23,721 bases of DNA from Escherichia coli (GCF_003334815.1 NZ_QOWO01000049.1), one strand, 5' to 3'. Shown: positions 11,628 to 18,362, counted from the first letter of the stretch. Program-made: numbers and translations. The notes: a model not told the origin generated them from the letters alone.

Positions 11628-12091
11628 TACTGCCCCCCTCCGGCGGCCATTTTTTGTGCCACTGCAGACTGAATTTCACCGGTAATGTCTGCCGCACCGC
11701 TGACCACCGCCGGCGTCACCAGGATAAGGACGTTGTGATCGCGCTGGTATTCCTGAAGTTCTGTGCTAAGTGTCTGCATAAAGCGTTCTGTCAGGACGCT
11801 CATCTGCGCCTCATTCAGGGACTGTGCCCCCGCCTGGTCGGTGAACTGATCGACCGTGCCCTTCATATCAAAAGACACAACCGTCGGTGTACGCCAGCTA
11901 ATCAGCAGAGACGTGACCGCCGCGTTAACGCACAGAACAGTGGCAGCGACCAGCAGCAGATTACGCAGACAACGGCGACGGCGTTGCTCCCGCCGGCTCC
12001 CTTTAACATTAATATTCCCCCCTTTTCTGACTGACTCAGCAGAAACAGAGGATTCAGACAGTGCTGAGTTAAGGTTTTGCTCTGTGGTCAT
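11627..12091 (-). CDS. trbI: TrbI, F-type inner-membrane pilus retraction/assembly protein
   Basis: 154 aa with a single TM segment after a basic stretch; canonical position between traC and traW; start overlaps the traC stop. Confidence 0.8.
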   Translation of the reverse strand: MTTEQNLNSALSESSVSAESVRKGGNINVKGSRREQRRRRCLRNLLLVAATVLCVNAAVTSLLISWRTPTVVSFDMKGTVDQFTDQAGAQSLNEAQMSVLTERFMQTLSTELQEYQRDHNVLILVTPAVVSGAADITGEIQSAVAQKMAAGGGQ

Positions 12092-14679
12092 GCTGCCTCC
12101 GCAAGCGCTTCCAGTTCGCGCATCTCATCAGGGAAGTTGCGTTGTGCCAGCAGGTAGACGGCGTCATGGATATCCATGTTCTGTTCCCGGCACTGGCGGA
12201 TAAATTCGAAGTCATCGCCCTTTGAACTGAACATCGCGCGACTGAGCGGATCGACAAAGAGACGATGGAAACTGCAGGTATCGTTGATGCGCAGCATAAA
12301 GGAGGAGAACCACTGGTCTTTGGCATCCCCGAATTTGGAGATAACGCTGCGCTCCAGCTCACTGAACTGGTTGGGGCGGTTCTGGTTGTACTGTTTGAAT
12401 TCCGACGCATCCTGCTTGAGAACCACCTTGAAGGCAGAGTTACCCCAGGCTGCTTTTGCTGCGCCGGAGGCATCATCGGCATCAAAGTCCTTGATGTTCT
12501 GACTTATGGTGATGAACGCGCCACGGTGACGTCGCACAGTGCGGTAGCCGGTCTCAATGAACTCACCGACCTTCTCATTTTTGAAGTTGAGCAGCTTCCA
12601 GCCTTCGTCGATGGTGCAGCACTTCTTCAGGCTGCGCGGCGTGCGGTACATCTTGTCCTCGATGTAGATGATGAGGGAGAACATCACCGCAACCAGCAGA
12701 TCAGGCTTGTCCTGCAGGCCGCCCAGCTCCAGGACGATAAAGCGGGCATCGTCGGTCAGTGACGGCTCATCGCTGTTGAAATATTCACCGTAAATTCCCC
12801 AGGAGCAGTATTTCCCGAGTAGCTCGATAATTTCATCCAGTCGGTTGGTGATGCCCGGCGAATTCTGGTATTTATCATGCTCACGGATAGCCGTCAGCTT
12901 ATGGACGACATGGTCAATACGGGCGGTTTCCTTGTGTTCTTCCCAGGCCTCCTGAACCCCGCGCAACAGCAGGCTGTGGTGGACTTCATCCAGCGTACCG
13001 TTAGGGCTTGCCAGCACAGCCAGCTGGTCACGAATACGTTCCCCGGACTCATTGATGTTAGAGATGTTGGCAAACGGATTGAATTTGAGTGACTTACCGT
13101 CAAGGTAGGTGCCACCCACGTTCTCACAGAACGATTTGTAGCCGTCCCCCATGTCAAACACCCAGGCGATACCGCCGGAGTCCAGCACGCTGCGCAGGAT
13201 AGGCTGCACCAGGCCGGTCTTGCCTGCCCCCGAGGTACCGGTGACCGCCATGTTGTAGTTGGTGTTGCCCATCCCGTCCCCGTAGATATCGAGGAAGGCC
13301 AGCTGGTTACGGTAGGACGGTGTCAGCAGTCCCCCCTGACACAGTCGGTTGTCGGCCACCACCGGCAGCAGATTCACGGCCTGGATACTCTCCGCCCGGC
13401 ACGTGGCTCCGCCCATTTTAATGTCCTCCCAGAGCCCTTCCGCATGAATGAAGGGGATCATCGCTATCCAGTTGCGGAACTGCATATAGGTCGGGGAAAA
13501 CAGCTCTATACCGTTTTTCTTGAACGTATTGATAACCTTCTGTTCGCAGACCAGCGCATCCTCATCCGTATCCGGACAGAATGTGGTGATGTTATAGTAA
13601 TAACGAACAATACAGGTCTGGTTGCTGTTAAGACGCTCGCGGATTTCCTTCCACTCCTGGGCCTGTTTGGCCACACCGGGAAACAGGGTGGCATAGGGGG
13701 ATTTCGCTTTTTTGTCCCGGTCGAGATACTTGCGTGTGGCCTCCCCTTGCGTTGCCACCTGGTCCTCGGCCTCCATTACCATGGTGATGACAAACGGGCT
13801 GGCAATGGTCAGGTCCGGGCTGAGCAGATTGGATAGGTTATCGCCGCCCATCCACAGCATGAACATATCCGGGTTATTTTCCAGCATAAAGTTCATGGCC
13901 CGTGTTGTGGTCACACTGCCCTGCCTGTCAGCCAGGCTGATACGCACATCGTCAGGACGCACATCGATACCGATACGCTGATCAATACAGCGCTGATGCA
14001 GTTCATCAAATTTGCCGACACGTACGTCGTCCGGATACAACTGATCATGGCGGGCATTCAGCATCCCGTGAACCAGCGTGGCCAGTTCCTGAGCATCTGC
14101 CGTCTGTGTGAAAATTTTTGCCGCATCCAGTGAAGAACGAAGAACTTTCAGTGTGTGGGCAACCTCCGTCATGACCGCCGCCGTGCGTTTCCTGGCTTTC
14201 ACACAGTAGGAGATATACAGGCGGTAGTCCCGCAGGGTCAGCGGCAACCCCGTAGGACTGTTGAACTGCTGCTGTGCAGCACGCCGGTAAAACGCCCGCG
14301 TGATACGGTTAAATTTATCCGCACGCTTACCCTGCCAGCGGAATTCAGACAGGCCACGATCCAGCTGCTCGCCAATCAGCTTACTGGACACCAGGTGGAA
14401 GGAAATCGGTGTCTTACGCGGCAGCTTGCTTTTGATGAGGTCTTCCAGCACATACACTATCTGTTCGTTAGCACCGATAAGGGGTTCCGCCCGCAGCAGA
14501 AAACCAACCGTACTGCGGTTCACAAACAGCCCGGAGTCACGGTCATAGTCGCGATACGGCAGGACGCTGGTCAGCTGCGGAAAATCCAGACTGGCCAGAT
14601 TACGCGTCATCTCAGATGCACCATCCGGCATACGGAAAGCATTCGTGAGGTTCTCCAGCACGCTCAGAAATTTTTTCAC
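12088..14679 (-). CDS. traC: TraC, F-type T4SS ATPase (VirB4 family)
   Basis: 863 aa; Walker A GTSGAGKTGL; long blocks matching remembered F TraC (LPYRDY, NYNMAV-GTSGAGKTGL-QP-IRSVLDSGG, VFDMGDGYKS-CEN-GG-YLDG, LLVAVMFSLIIYIE-MYRTPR-LKK, FVDPLSRAM-SS). Apparent GTG start at 14677-14679 with AAGGAGG upstream. Confidence 0.95.
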   Translation of the reverse strand: MKKFLSVLENLTNAFRMPDGASEMTRNLASLDFPQLTSVLPYRDYDRDSGLFVNRSTVGFLLRAEPLIGANEQIVYVLEDLIKSKLPRKTPISFHLVSSKLIGEQLDRGLSEFRWQGKRADKFNRITRAFYRRAAQQQFNSPTGLPLTLRDYRLYISYCVKARKRTAAVMTEVAHTLKVLRSSLDAAKIFTQTADAQELATLVHGMLNARHDQLYPDDVRVGKFDELHQRCIDQRIGIDVRPDDVRISLADRQGSVTTTRAMNFMLENNPDMFMLWMGGDNLSNLLSPDLTIASPFVITMVMEAEDQVATQGEATRKYLDRDKKAKSPYATLFPGVAKQAQEWKEIRERLNSNQTCIVRYYYNITTFCPDTDEDALVCEQKVINTFKKNGIELFSPTYMQFRNWIAMIPFIHAEGLWEDIKMGGATCRAESIQAVNLLPVVADNRLCQGGLLTPSYRNQLAFLDIYGDGMGNTNYNMAVTGTSGAGKTGLVQPILRSVLDSGGIAWVFDMGDGYKSFCENVGGTYLDGKSLKFNPFANISNINESGERIRDQLAVLASPNGTLDEVHHSLLLRGVQEAWEEHKETARIDHVVHKLTAIREHDKYQNSPGITNRLDEIIELLGKYCSWGIYGEYFNSDEPSLTDDARFIVLELGGLQDKPDLLVAVMFSLIIYIEDKMYRTPRSLKKCCTIDEGWKLLNFKNEKVGEFIETGYRTVRRHRGAFITISQNIKDFDADDASGAAKAAWGNSAFKVVLKQDASEFKQYNQNRPNQFSELERSVISKFGDAKDQWFSSFMLRINDTCSFHRLFVDPLSRAMFSSKGDDFEFIRQCREQNMDIHDAVYLLAQRNFPDEMRELEALAEAA

Positions 14680-14689
14680 CAGAACCTCC

Positions 14690-15289
14690 TTAATTTATGC
14701 GGGCCGGAAGGACCCAGTCAGCAGGGCTGACCACAAAAGAGACACGACCGGGCTGATGGAAAGCGTTATCGCTGTCCACCCAGGGCGCGATCCAGACGGT
14801 AGCGATGCGATCCCGGCTGCGCTGAGGATGTACAGAGCCGGGATTATCACAACGCACGGTCTGGCATGAGGGAGCCGGATTGCCCACGGACACAGCCGGA
14901 CGCGAAACTGGTGTTACCGGCGTTCCGGCAACCAGACGGGGCGTCAGGGTTGGCGCTGCGGCATTCGTGCTTTTACCTGTTGCGCCGTCAACTGATACTG
15001 CAGGTTTGTTGCTGGTTACCTGTATACGGGAAGAGGTGCTGACAGCAGAGCGGGATGCTGACGGAAGCACCGCCGCAGAAGTGGCCGGGAGATTAACCAG
15101 GGAAGGCAGTCCGCCCGCAGCCGGCTTTCCCGCCTGTTTTGCCGCCTTGTCCCGTGCCAGCTGGTTGGCTTTCGTCATGGTCATACAGGTATCAGACGTT
15201 GTGGCATCACAGTCAAAGCTGCTTTTAACGCCGGCACAGCCGGTCAACAGCAGGACACTGCCTGCCAGCAAAAATGTAATTTTTTTCAT
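14690..15289 (-). CDS. traV: TraV, F-type outer-membrane lipoprotein of the core complex
   Basis: 199 aa; lipobox LLTGCAG and conserved CDATTSDTCMTM block as in F TraV; C-terminal WIAPWVD-D--HQP block; RBS AGGA before ATG 15287-15289. Confidence 0.88.
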   Translation of the reverse strand: MKKITFLLAGSVLLLTGCAGVKSSFDCDATTSDTCMTMTKANQLARDKAAKQAGKPAAGGLPSLVNLPATSAAVLPSASRSAVSTSSRIQVTSNKPAVSVDGATGKSTNAAAPTLTPRLVAGTPVTPVSRPAVSVGNPAPSCQTVRCDNPGSVHPQRSRDRIATVWIAPWVDSDNAFHQPGRVSFVVSPADWVLPARIN

Positions 15290-15348
15290 CGCTGTTTCCT
15301 GAAAAATTATGCTCTGAAGGGTCTGGCTGGCTGCGAAAGCGCAGCGCT

Positions 15349-15759
15349 TTATTTATCATGATGCCCGTCCCCTGGCTTCAGCGGATACCAGACGTTGCAG
15401 TTCTGACGGATAACCTCCGCCAGCCTCTCCCCGTCCTCACCGCTATACAGTGCTTTAATCTGGCTGACGTCAGACTTCGCCAGGAAAACCCGGTACATCT
15501 GTTGTTTTGTTATGCTCATACCTGACCCCGGTTTTCCCAGGAACAGGCAGTGCCCTCGTTCCCGCTGCAGTACAAGTACGCCCTGAGAAATCCGCGCCTT
15601 CCCCTCAAGGGCGGTAGCGCACGGCAGAGACGCTGAAGGCCAGAAGTCGCTCTCTGCGGCATCAACACAGATGACACGCATCCCTGGATTCTCGCAGCAG
15701 ACCGCAATATCATTAAGGTGGCGGGTCTTACCCGGACTGCCGTTACTGTTGGTTGTCAT
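15349..15759 (-). CDS. Hypothetical protein (about 136 aa) in the traB-traV interval
   Basis: ATG 15757-15759 with RBS AGGAGA 7 nt upstream, overlapping the end of the preceding 61-aa ORF by 17 nt. Soluble, Cys-containing, with degenerate P-loop-like strings (GSPGKT, GKPGSGMS). Occupies the position of traP/trbD/trbG in F but I cannot confirm homology to any of them. Confidence 0.5.
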   Translation of the reverse strand: MTTNSNGSPGKTRHLNDIAVCCENPGMRVICVDAAESDFWPSASLPCATALEGKARISQGVLVLQRERGHCLFLGKPGSGMSITKQQMYRVFLAKSDVSQIKALYSGEDGERLAEVIRQNCNVWYPLKPGDGHHDK

Positions 15760-15928
15760 GATGTTCGTCTCCTGGTTTTTTGCCATCGTTCTGAATGTCT
15801 TTGCGTAATTCACGCCAGTCGCGGAGTTGTCGTTCTGATAAAAAGGTCCGCATAACGTCAACGCTGATGGATGTCTTACCGCTATCGGTTTTCCCCACGA
15901 CCGTCACATTGGTTTTTCTGTTTTTCAT
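15743..15928 (-). CDS. Hypothetical small protein (61 aa) with Walker-A-like motif GKTDSGKT
   Basis: ATG 15926-15928 directly behind a strong RBS (GAGGAGGTGA); begins a few nt after the traR-like stop. Contains VVGKTDSGKTS (GxxxxGKT). Too short to be a stand-alone NTPase. Confidence 0.45.
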   Translation of the reverse strand: MKNRKTNVTVVGKTDSGKTSISVDVMRTFLSERQLRDWRELRKDIQNDGKKPGDEHHDNQQ

Positions 15929-15931
15929 CCT

Positions 15932-16159
15932 TCACCTCCTCAGGCAGTGTTTTTGCCGGATTTCCAGTACCCGCTGGCATTCCGTACAGGTTCGTACACC
16001 GGGTATCGTTTGCTGGCGTTTGAGAGGAATGTCGTTGCCACAGCATTCACACTCGCAGAGGCTTTCTCCCCCTTTTATTAGCAACTGCCGGGCAGCCTGA
16101 ATATGCAGCCGGTTCAGCAGGTCTTCCTGCATCTGTAAATGGTCCAGTACGTCGGCCAT
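15932..16159 (-). CDS. traR: TraR/DksA-family C4 zinc-finger protein
   Basis: About 75 aa from ATG 16157-16159 (RBS AAGGAG 5 nt upstream); CxxC...CxxC motif (CECECCGNDIPLKRQQTIPGVRTCTECQ) aligning with remembered F TraR (CEACGNPIPEARRKIFPGVTLCVECQ). The ORF track's GTG-extended start at 16210 is rejected. Lies upstream of traV rather than between traV and traC as in F. Confidence 0.8.
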   Translation of the reverse strand: MADVLDHLQMQEDLLNRLHIQAARQLLIKGGESLCECECCGNDIPLKRQQTIPGVRTCTECQRVLEIRQKHCLRR

Positions 16160-16270
16160 CGGTTCTCCTTGTTTACGTTGTCCGGACACGCTACCGCCCA
16201 TCCCTTTCACGTCTTTCAGGGCTCTGACTGTTCCGGATTGTGTGGTTCTGGCCGGTATTCCGGCTCCCGT

Positions 16271-17635
16271 TTACTGCGTGATAACCTGGCCTGTAGCCGG
16301 GTCGACGGTGTCCCCCAGCCTGAAGTCCTGCAGGTGTTTAAGCATGTCCGTCGTGTTGCCGGGCATGGCAGCAGGCGCAGATGAGGCTGATGGTTGATTT
16401 TGTTTTTTGCGTGCAGCGGCTTTCGCGCGGGCTTCTTCCAGCGTTTCAAGCTGGAAGCCATCCTGGAAAACCAGGGTGACTTCATTGCCCGCACCAATCG
16501 GAATAACCGGGTGGTATTGTTCAGCACGTTTGATGTAGTAATCAGAGAGTGTTTTGGCCGCAGAACTGACTCCGCCGCCGAGCCCGGCCTGGCCGATTTC
16601 ACCGGCACTCATACTGGCAGTGGCTCCAACGCCCACGGTTGTGGAAGAGGCTTTCTCAATGCCCTTCCCGATACCATCAAGAAAGCCTGATCCCCCCGCA
16701 TACAGCAGGATTTGACCGTTACGCATGACCACTTCGCCCTTGATGCCATTCTTGCCCATAAAGGACACATGACCGGCAATCTTCTGGTCGATATTGTCAT
16801 CACCCAGCTTGCAGCTGATGGAGCGGGTACGGACGATGGCGCGTTCACTGGAAACATCCCCCCAGGCTTCGAGAGTCACAAAACACCCGGTTAGATCGAA
16901 TTCCTGATCGTTAGGCATCTGAACTTTGCCGGTCAGGCGAAGCTGCATCGGGACAGTATTTTTATCGCCGGTGACAGAGGCATTGGCATCAGCGCCTTCC
17001 ACCACAATGGCTTCGGCAAAACTGCCGGAGGAAATCCACGGGAAACGGGGCTTTTCCGGAGCGGTGTCCGGCTGAGTGAATTCATGGCTGTCCATCATTC
17101 CCGGACGCTGAACCGGGGTCATCACCGGTGCGACAGGAGCCTGTCCGCCACCGGCGGGCCAGAAAGTGGTCGGGGGAGGAACATCACCGGCCTGTGCAGC
17201 AGTTTTTCCCTGTGAGGCGAGCGCCCCTGGCAGCGGTTCAGCGCTGAGAGAGTCAAAATTCTTCCCGGCTTCGATTTGTGTCTGCAGGAGTTTATTTTCA
17301 TCTTCCAGCTCACGGATACGCTCCTGAGAGCCTTTCAGATCACGCCCGATAATTCCCATTTCTGTACGCAGCTTTTTAATTTCAGCCTGCGTTTCCTTGT
17401 TCAGACGCTGGGCTTCCGCAATGGCGGAACGCTGGACTTTATTGTCAAAGGACTGATTGACCACCCCGGTCATATCCGGCGCAGGTTCGCCCTTTGGTGC
17501 TTTTGCCGGCGGGGCTTTCTTCAGATTCATCTCGGATACCATCCAGGTTCCTGCCCCACCCGCACCAATACCCAGCACAAGCGCGATAAACAGAGCGAGC
17601 TGACGACGACGAACGATTTTGTTAACGTTGGCCAT
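16271..17635 (-). CDS. traB: TraB, F-type T4SS inner-membrane/core protein (VirB10-like)
   Basis: About 454 aa from ATG 17633-17635 (RBS GGGGAGGG upstream); N-terminus MANVNKIVRRRQ resembles F TraB MASINTIVKRKQ; conserved C-terminal blocks (SGSFA-A-VEGADANASVTG, GCFV-LEAWGDVSSERAIVRTR, GKNGIKGEVVMRNG, YYIKRAEQYHPVIPIGAGNEVT-VFQDGFQL). Confidence 0.93.
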   Translation of the reverse strand: MANVNKIVRRRQLALFIALVLGIGAGGAGTWMVSEMNLKKAPPAKAPKGEPAPDMTGVVNQSFDNKVQRSAIAEAQRLNKETQAEIKKLRTEMGIIGRDLKGSQERIRELEDENKLLQTQIEAGKNFDSLSAEPLPGALASQGKTAAQAGDVPPPTTFWPAGGGQAPVAPVMTPVQRPGMMDSHEFTQPDTAPEKPRFPWISSGSFAEAIVVEGADANASVTGDKNTVPMQLRLTGKVQMPNDQEFDLTGCFVTLEAWGDVSSERAIVRTRSISCKLGDDNIDQKIAGHVSFMGKNGIKGEVVMRNGQILLYAGGSGFLDGIGKGIEKASSTTVGVGATASMSAGEIGQAGLGGGVSSAAKTLSDYYIKRAEQYHPVIPIGAGNEVTLVFQDGFQLETLEEARAKAAARKKQNQPSASSAPAAMPGNTTDMLKHLQDFRLGDTVDPATGQVITQ

Positions 17636-18362
17636 CTGTTCCCTCCCCGTTTTCACGGATAACGGTGACAGTCAGCCGTCCCCCGCCCATCAGGGTCTGT
17701 GCATTGCTGTCAAACATGACGGCACGAACTCCGGGCTTCCAGAAGTCCTGCTCACGCAGAGCCACTCCCCACGTATTTGCATTGCGTAGTTCATAACTAT
17801 CGACCCGTAACTTGTCGCCCGACCATGCTTTCTGCGGCGTGGCGGAAAACCCATCCGGTACGTTGATACCGTCCGCAAGCGGTTTCACCTCGCCATAGCC
17901 ATCAGGCATCGTGTCTGTCAGCACAGCCCGGTTGAGTGCGATGAGCAGTTTTTCGTAAGCCTGAGCGGTTTCCCAGTGGCGGGTTTCTGGGCGCGACGGA
18001 GGTTCTGCACTCATCAGTCGGTAGACTCGCCCCTCACCTTTGACGGGCGTGGCCACAACAGAGAAGGTTTGCCCCAGGGCAGTTTCCACATACAGCGTGA
18101 AGGCCCGGGTAGCCACGGAAGTGAACAGCACCCCGCCGGCAGACGTCAGTCGTTTATCTGCCAGCATCCCGTTCTGAGCTGTGATGGCTGTGACTTTATC
18201 TCCCGGAATAAAAATCATATTGGGATCGGTATTACTGATACTGAGCCGGAACTGCCCCCCCTGCGGAAAGCTGAGTGTGGCAGGTGACTGTGCATATACT
18301 GTCACAGGCGAAGTGACCATCAGGGCGGTGCCCAAAAGCAGCGCTGGAAAGTTATTTTTCAT
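17622..18362 (-). CDS. traK: TraK, F-type secretin-like core complex protein
   Basis: 246 aa with signal peptide (F TraK 242 aa); canonical position; overlaps traE stop and traB start. Confidence 0.88.
   Translation of the reverse strand: MKNNFPALLLGTALMVTSPVTVYAQSPATLSFPQGGQFRLSISNTDPNMIFIPGDKVTAITAQNGMLADKRLTSAGGVLFTSVATRAFTLYVETALGQTFSVVATPVKGEGRVYRLMSAEPPSRPETRHWETAQAYEKLLIALNRAVLTDTMPDGYGEVKPLADGINVPDGFSATPQKAWSGDKLRVDSYELRNANTWGVALREQDFWKPGVRAVMFDSNAQTLMGGGRLTVTVIRENGEGTDGQR

Follow-up and report, generated by a model that had tools for sequence, protein, structure and literature searches.

The transfer (tra) operon carried on a 23,721-nucleotide (nt) stretch of Escherichia coli DNA (GCF_003334815.1, NZ_QOWO01000049.1; hereafter the window) contains, between traB and traV, two small open reading frames (ORFs) of 61 and 136 amino acids (aa) for which our literature search found no description, and this raises the question of what they encode and with which of their neighbours they work. 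On the minus strand, which carries all of the genes discussed here, the order is traB, a traR-like gene, ORF61 (15743-15928), ORF136 (15349-15759), traV and traC. The initial annotation, made from the sequence alone, had proposed a traR-led trio devoted to regulation or host manipulation, and had left room for diverged equivalents of trbD, trbG or traP; its coordinates and ORFs all hold and, because related plasmids carry the same three annotated ORFs, the arrangement is no chance set of ORFs. The reading that we find somewhat probable is a different one, namely that ORF61 and ORF136 form a dispensable cytoplasmic accessory of the inner-membrane complex of TraP and the type IV secretion system (T4SS), now decaying in a plasmid without traP. 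Both ORFs, many unannotated mini-ORFs and the tail of Klebsiella TraP make up a single family of P-loop fragments, and this link is modestly new.

The family is defined by a unit of about 70 aa composed of a strand, a Walker A loop, a short helix and the succession RVFLA-SDVSQLK-YSGEDGE-LAEAIR-NC-W-LKPG. In ORF61, residues 12-19 read GKTDSGKT and fit the pattern GxxxxGKT (Walker A, GxxxxGK[ST]). ORF136 begins with an N-terminal half particular to its family (GSPGKT...GMRVICV) and continues with one unit (residues 64-136; 15352-15570), in which a degenerate P-loop, GKPGSGMS, precedes RVFLAKSDVSQIKALYSGEDGERLAEVIRQNCNVWYPLKPG. It has no proper Walker A; the two P-loop-like strings already noticed in the initial annotation are GSPGKT (residues 7-12, in SNGSPGKT, where the first Gly is absent) and GKPGSGMS (residues 75-82, where Lys is replaced by Met). 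The 94 relatives of ORF136, all of them hypothetical proteins from Enterobacterales, share an N-terminal block (GGPGKTRHLNDIA..GMRVICV) and a C-terminal block (RVFLAKSDVSQIKALYSGEDGERLAEAIRQNC.VWFPL) on either side of a variable middle that is often deleted in frame. Residues 64-136 align with free-standing ORFs of 64-85 aa found in other F-like plasmids of Citrobacter, Serratia, Erwinia and Enterobacter, one example being Cfre_71 (MGSRKANVMVVGKTGSGKTMTLSQVTQFFLAKSDVSQLKERYSGNDGERIAEAIRQNCNIWYPLKPGDEGQ). A hidden Markov model (HMM) of the unit, built without any ORF61 sequence, gives E 4.5e-6 for ORF61, and 2.6e-9 and 4.5e-9 for its orthologs, in each case over HMM positions 2-42, the N-terminal P-loop half. 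There are natural recombinants (Eclo_64, P0093, Cfre_71) whose N-terminus is of the ORF61 type and whose C-terminus is of the ORF136 type, and in DNA alignment the single-unit gene of Citrobacter freundii p48846 (L011) corresponds to the start of ORF61 joined to the end of ORF136. Because of the HMM result and of these recombinants, ORF61 and the C-terminal half of ORF136 are recognised as tandem, diverged paralogs, ORF61 being a truncated or diverged copy of the unit. The N-terminal half of ORF136 was considered as a third copy and found no support (hhalign P 0.17).

A HMMER scan of the unit over 1.84 billion representative proteins returned only 65 matches at E <=1e-3, roughly 45 of them small proteins and the others either TraP fusions, of two kinds, or giant multi-P-loop proteins, the last of which are P-loop noise. 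The family is made of unnamed proteins of 64-90 aa that combine Walker A with the motif "SDVSQLK...NC" and are confined to the F-like traB-traC interval; about half of the units keep GxxGxGKT. It is of interest that Serratia marcescens pE36_1 (L006 3777-3992) encodes, in the position of ORF61 and with no traR, an ORF of 71 aa whose Walker A (GTAGAGKTT) is perfect; it sits just upstream of a unit ORF, in parallel with ORF61 and ORF136, and P0240 is a natural fusion of both.

The unit is also found within a larger protein. A Serratia unit (Smar_79) matches the C-terminal ~50 residues of the IncFII TraP of 527 Klebsiella plasmids (E 1e-4), the match lying in the traP reading frame; the Klebsiella-type tail is matched by the unit HMM at 5.9e-19 and, in the reverse direction, residues 141-197 of Klebsiella TraP find ORF136 in the window by tblastn at E 1.15e-5. 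In this TraP the unit occupies residues ~136-198 (KNGVVVGESGSGSSRLILARSDVSQIKRVY...AIKENTQIRMNLKK). F TraP has two transmembrane segments and both of its termini are cytoplasmic (PMC7555446), so that by homology the unit would be a cytoplasmic tail. As a gene of its own, the unit ORF usually immediately precedes, and overlaps, a traP without the tail (L003, L006, L010 and L012), and the 154-aa TraP of L012 matches only positions 10-145 of the 197 in the NCBIfam TraP model. That the unit is fused in some plasmids and separate in others speaks for TraP, not TraR, as its functional associate, and we infer that it works with TraP or with the T4SS.

As to whether the two ORFs are diverged equivalents of traP, trbD or trbG, homology to the Klebsiella-type TraP tail is the part of that suggestion that stands. 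TraP (NCBIfam NF010299, pilus-stabilizing) of Klebsiella IncFII plasmids shares its C-terminal tail with residues 64-136 of ORF136, and this tail is related to ORF61, but TraP also has a membrane domain in which two transmembrane helices flank a periplasmic loop, whereas ORF61 and ORF136 have neither and do not match NF010299. No hydrophobic segment was found in either ORF, and tblastn with the TraP membrane domain found no match in the window, so orthology with TraP does not hold. Nor did TrbD or TrbG emerge from the searches: BLASTP of the two ORFs against F TraP, TrbD and TrbG gave nothing significant (against TrbD, no alignment of ORF61 up to E 100 and only a weak one of ORF136, E 0.46), the Pfam TrbD model (PF10894) matched neither up to E 10, F TrbG gave no alignment with either by BLASTP or by tblastn against the window, and the unit HMM detected neither F TrbD nor F TrbG. 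TrbD of F and R100 (PF10894, DUF2689) is likewise a small, non-essential ORF of the same variable interval. In the R100-type protein (106 aa), the Walker A VVAGQSGGGKS aligns with the N-terminus of the unit at an hhalign probability of 88% (P 3e-6), over the P-loop segment only, and 'AVLSNCTTKIVL' aligns weakly with the unit's 'AIRQNCNVWYPL' (P 0.004); the two motifs stand in reversed order relative to the unit, and ORF61 and ORF136 match no TrbD model of Pfam or NCBIfam. A relationship between R100-type TrbD and the unit is suggestive and unproven. The intact Walker A of R100-type TrbD (P0158, P0170) lies in the C-terminal half, which the 63-aa F TrbD (L002 6260-6451) does not have.

The layout of the window is, on plasmid comparison, common to a large clade and not unique. 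Over its full length the window shares 96-97% identity with the tra regions of conjugative plasmids already known from E. coli, and its 1.1-kb interval matches 361 plasmid records, 63 of them over at least 80% of the length and with up to 94.6% identity; these 63, which include plasmids of E. coli, Shigella, E. albertii and, in one case, K. pneumoniae, have the same three ORFs annotated. With ORF136 as query, tblastn reached 307 plasmids, chiefly of Enterobacter, Citrobacter, Klebsiella, Escherichia, Serratia, Salmonella and Yersinia. In Enterobacter and Klebsiella plasmids and in Yersinia pestis pMT the order is traB-traV-[traR-61-136]-traP-traC, with traR in the F-like position after traV, and the trio between traV and traP occurs in Enterobacter, Citrobacter, Klebsiella and Yersinia plasmids. 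Salmonella pCFSAN006238 (L012) has traB-[traR-61-133]-traP(154 aa)-orf146-traV-traC, further plasmids have traB-traR-(one 64-71-aa ORF)-(orf147)-traV, and Serratia and Erwinia plasmids have related small ORFs without traR. The traR gene is relocated, as had been claimed, relative to F, but not for its own plasmid clade, in which traR after traB is normal. The traB-traC interval is a variable region, in which duplication, deletion, fusion and gene conversion are concentrated.

Deletion is recorded in the window itself. Compared with pCFSAN006238, about 0.9 kb is missing, corresponding to traP and orf146. ORF136 ends in ...CCAGGGGACGGGCATCATGATAAATAA, which holds a Shine-Dalgarno sequence (SD) and the first traP codons (ATG ATA AAT AAA, MINK; 15359-15348); the traP start relic (15345-15359; ATG ATA AAT AAA GCG, MINKA) and its upstream sequence match the traP 'MINKVL' of L012, and the layout of the junction is identical to that of ORF133 and traP in L012. 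Immediately downstream, 15348-15307 encodes SAALSQPARPFRA followed by a stop, the final 13 codons of an orf146/147 gene, almost the same as the 3' terminus of the 147-aa gene located ahead of traV in p48846. At the level of such plasmid comparison, these relics show the window to be derived by deletion from a traB-traR-61-136-traP-orf146-traV layout. The deleted orf146/147 product is a conserved, predicted membrane protein of 144-147 aa (MDxxxLLLRDFSDLTRPELI...) without an NCBIfam match, encoded before traV in several F-like plasmids (L012 3356-3796, L011 3710-4153, L010 4155-4595 and L015 2926-3360).

The genes of the string are closely packed, each with its own ribosome-binding site and with ORFs that overlap or abut, as first described and as read here from SD sites and junctions. 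The traR-like gene has AAGGAG 5 nt upstream of its ATG; the SD of ORF61, GAGGAGG, sits within the end of traR, and its ATG lies 3 nt past the traR stop; the SD of ORF136, AGGAGA, sits within the last codons of ORF61, the two ORFs overlapping by 17 nt. The ORF61/ORF136 junction (15753-15778), where the SD (CCAGGAGAC) and ATG fall within the codons of PGDEHHD, and the junction at the end of ORF136 (15353-15378), which carries the start signals (SD and ATG) of the lost traP, are 81% identical to each other and make up a direct repeat of 26 nt. The PGDxHHD tails of both proteins are the SD (CCAGGAGAC) and the ATG (CATCATGA) of the next cistron read as protein, an explanation for which these tails were rejected as evidence of paralogy. 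The signals provide strong evidence, at the level of sequence, for translational coupling along the string, and ORF61 and ORF136 are presumably translated. A programmed +1 frameshift fusing ORF61 to ORF136 was also considered, the ORF136 frame being open for 48 codons upstream of its ATG, and was rejected, the fused product not being one that would rebuild a unit; the only fused ORF61-ORF136 protein in the databases (P0052) has a second frameshift as well. A third, weaker copy of the SD and ATG repeat occurs inside ORF136 (15510-15535), where the codons of GSGMS place the ATG of Met81 (15519-15517) after GGGG. Most members of the ORF136 family conserve Met81, which makes initiation from within the ORF possible, and the resulting 55-aa ORF is sometimes called by the annotation pipeline PGAP under the name 'Clp protease' (L005 3735-3902).

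Selection was measured as the pairwise ratio of nonsynonymous to synonymous substitution rates (dN/dS) between plasmids. The ratio is 0.05-0.15 for traB among backbones of the window type, rising to 0.35 in comparisons with the L003/L013 lineage, for which dS has reached saturation; it is 0.1-0.25 for traR, the best conserved gene of the trio, and 0.2-0.4 for traV. For ORF61 it is 0.35-0.75 and exceeds 1 in close pairs, and for ORF136 it is 0.37-0.55 in distant pairs and about 1 in close ones. Frameshifted or truncated ORF136 alleles are frequent, P0085 being present on 127 contigs and P0065 on 82. By these comparisons both ORFs are shown as fast-evolving genes under weak constraint. Recombination has also left a trace: between the window and the Enterobacter-type L003, dS reaches 3.0 for traB, 1.5 for traR and 1.9 for traV, and is just 0.03 for ORF61. 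The segment 15752-15871 (~120 nt), recognised by sliding identity and by the dS of ORF61, is 97-98% identical to the Enterobacter and Y. pestis pMT-type loci (L003/L013), with flanks at 55-87%, and the interval outside it is closest to E. coli plasmids of the enterotoxigenic (ETEC) type. On this pattern of identity, 15752-15871 is to be read as a gene-conversion patch.

Could the two ORFs be what remains of an enzyme? Profile searches of PDB and NCBIfam gave generic P-loop or AAA+ matches only, including dynein and midasin, far under the family cut-offs. One such likeness is with ClpX, with which the unit shares the Walker A strand-loop-helix and a GYVGED-like segment: the unit profile matches ClpX residues 112-171 (Walker A to the GYVGED helix) at E 0.004 in PDB, and Cfre_71 matches the NCBIfam ClpX model at 1.7e-5. 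These matches favour a split, degenerate P-loop ATPase, AAA+/ClpX-like or VirB4/VirB11-like, of which ORF61 would supply the P-loop and ORF136 the second motif of a nucleotide-binding heteromer, and so do the retention of GxxGxGKT in roughly half of the units, the complementary degeneration of the copies in two-copy systems (the P-loop is intact in ORF61 and Smar_71, while the C-terminal motif survives in ORF136 and Smar_79) and the intact Walker A at the end of R100-type TrbD. The scores, however, are P-loop-driven; the units span just 60-75 residues and the two proteins 61 and 136 aa, too short for the complete alpha/beta core of an ATPase (about 150 residues or more), no profile match extends beyond ~60 residues, and Walker B, sensor motifs, an arginine finger and the rest of the NTPase core are absent. 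A VirB4/TraC fragment, suggested by eye from the likeness of the unit and F TrbD to Walker A and the C-terminal motifs of VirB4/TraC, was rejected, since the unit HMM matches TraC at residues 477-505 only, around Walker A (E 2.5), and VirB4 is not among the PDB profile matches. Neither ORF136 nor the Klebsiella TraP tail retains the lysine of the P-loop. ORF136 has no Pfam match even at E 10, ORF61 has only weak generic P-loop matches in Pfam, NCBIfam and PADLOC, the PADLOC anti-phage defence models give only matches of P-loop length (E >1e-3), and PHROGs, Pfam and PADLOC give nothing past P-loop noise for either. AlphaFold2 yields no confident fold (pLDDT, its per-residue confidence score, 34.5 for ORF136 and 58 for an intact unit), and Foldseek against PDB returns one meaningless match. 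Because nothing lies beyond the Walker A segment and the P-loop lysine of ORF136 is gone, ORF61 and ORF136, judged by their motifs, cannot be stand-alone ATPases or enzymes, and we consider the heteromeric ATPase improbable. Likewise, the name 'DEAD/DEAH box helicase family protein' given by PGAP to ORF61 (ORF136 being 'hypothetical') has behind it a motif-I-like P-loop in 61 aa, with motifs II-VI missing and no Pfam helicase match; this name and 'Clp protease' are over-annotations of a P-loop match. It is tempting to speculate that the whole family (ORF61, ORF136, the tail of TraP and perhaps the half of TrbD with the P-loop) is the remains of an ancestral AAA+-like ATPase gene in the F-type traB-traC interval, and that in two-copy plasmids its complementarily degenerated copies, here ORF61 with the phosphate-binding loop and ORF136 with SDVSQLK...NC, would jointly still serve the T4SS, at its cytoplasmic face, as an adaptor that binds nucleotides; this is highly improbable in our estimation. 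To our knowledge, F-type systems have no VirB11-type ATPase.

The accessory reading, under which the unit would be a non-essential part of the T4SS inner-membrane apparatus, acting with the TraP tail or replacing it and having no enzymatic activity, supposes that ORF61 and ORF136 are small soluble proteins, probably cytoplasmic, translated by coupling within the string traR, ORF61, ORF136, (traP, orf146), traV. The unit occurs either in a mini-gene of its own, as a rule shortly before traP, or fused to TraP as its predicted cytoplasmic tail, and in the window the module would probably be in the course of being lost, traP and orf146 having already been deleted and the two ORFs being weakly constrained. 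Several points weigh against it. The dN/dS of 0.4-0.5 in distant pairs and the strong conservation of GPGKTRHL...GMRVI and of SDVSQ...N are signs of some purifying selection, so that being lost may be too strong a description; the unit HMM does not pick up the F TraP tail, the link with TraP being drawn from the Klebsiella-type tail and from gene adjacency; the failure of AlphaFold2 may reflect shallow alignments (29-32 sequences); and the proposed role comes from sequence comparison. The rival that deserves the most attention, and that we nevertheless hold to be unlikely, is that the ORFs are non-functional relics kept open only so that ribosomes reach the next SD and ATG, formerly those of traP and now those of traV, with products that have no role. 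A dN/dS of about 1 in close pairs, the many in-frame deletions and frameshifted alleles in plasmids typed as conjugative, the lack of a predicted fold and the fact that the sole feature common to both tails is the protein shadow of an SD and an ATG would all suit such relics. They would not account for ratios of 0.35-0.55 across distant pairs, for near-invariant blocks of residues far from any junction, or for large deletions that stay in frame and keep the C-terminal motif; moreover, the unit persists in Escherichia, Serratia, Erwinia and Klebsiella, and its fusion to TraP is fixed in >500 Klebsiella plasmids. As for traR, ORF61 and ORF136 being one module that acts on RNA polymerase or on host physiology, the trio is indeed contiguous, coupled and co-conserved in two different operon positions. 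Units nevertheless occur without traR in Serratia and Erwinia plasmids, traR is also seen beside a single unit, F and R100 have traR with no recognisable free-standing unit, the rates and recombination history of traR differ sharply from those of ORF61 and ORF136, and the fusion partner of the unit is TraP, an inner-membrane pilus protein. The regulatory or host-manipulation trio first proposed is thus unsupported, the units being found without traR, linked to traP and weakly constrained beside a conserved traR, and we regard it as the least probable of the explanations considered.

The traR-like gene itself (15932-16159; 75 aa, ATG at 16159 and stop at 15934-15932) encodes a protein that is colinear with F TraR, with 37% identity over 71 aa (E 9e-14), and that matches the TraR structure 5W1S at E 8e-9 and phrog_54 at E 4.7e-18. 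Its scores against TIGR02419 (E 9.8e-14, 51.7 bits) and PRK13715 (40.2) are under the curated cut-offs of 59.7 bits and 108, respectively, and for this reason we class it, by its profile matches, as a member of the TraR/DksA family and not as a certified equivalog. F TraR binds the secondary channel of RNA polymerase (PDB 5W1S, 6N57). The likeness, which is one of sequence, extends to the four zinc-binding cysteines of the C4 finger in the C-terminal half (CECCGN...CTECQ, aligned with CEACGN...CVECQ of F TraR) and to D3 and D6 of the acidic tip of the N-terminal helix; the two differ in gene position, after traV in F and after traB in the window, in the scores under the NCBIfam equivalog cut-offs, and at position 8, which is Leu rather than Ala (DxxDxL vs DxxDxA). 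Ala8 is reported to be functionally important in F TraR (PMC7555446). Leu8 is shared by the window protein and all eight orthologs examined, DksA having DxxDxA like F TraR.

Taken as a whole, the finding is real but ordinary, that of an accessory stretch, typical of its clade and prone to recombination, within an F-like tra operon, and differences from F in gene order within the traB-traC interval are not to be read as new functional modules. In hundreds of plasmid records these ORFs go under the names 'hypothetical', 'DEAD/DEAH box helicase family protein' or 'Clp protease'; they belong to a single TraP-tail-related family. If it were true that the unit binds TraP, TraB or TraC, it would open a way into the cytoplasmic side of F-pilus assembly, which is poorly understood.

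Around the two ORFs, traB (16271-17656) is the upstream cistron, separated from traR by a 111-nt spacer; traV (14690-15289), the downstream cistron, has the SD AGGAAA at 15295-15300, and traC (12088-14679) begins 10 nt past it, which bears out the earlier statement that traV abuts traC. An Rfam scan of the window gave no non-coding RNA match, and no internal promoter was found in 15100-16400. The same 15100-16400 region has two terminator-like matches, both on the non-coding strand and both at the palindrome GCTGCGAAAGCGCAGC (15330-15345, plus strand), which lies inside the 3'-end relic of orf146/147 (15307-15348), just past the deletion junction. Finally, the traP relic ATG heads a 44-aa relic ORF (15225-15359) that crosses the SD and start of traV in another frame and could affect the translation of traV.

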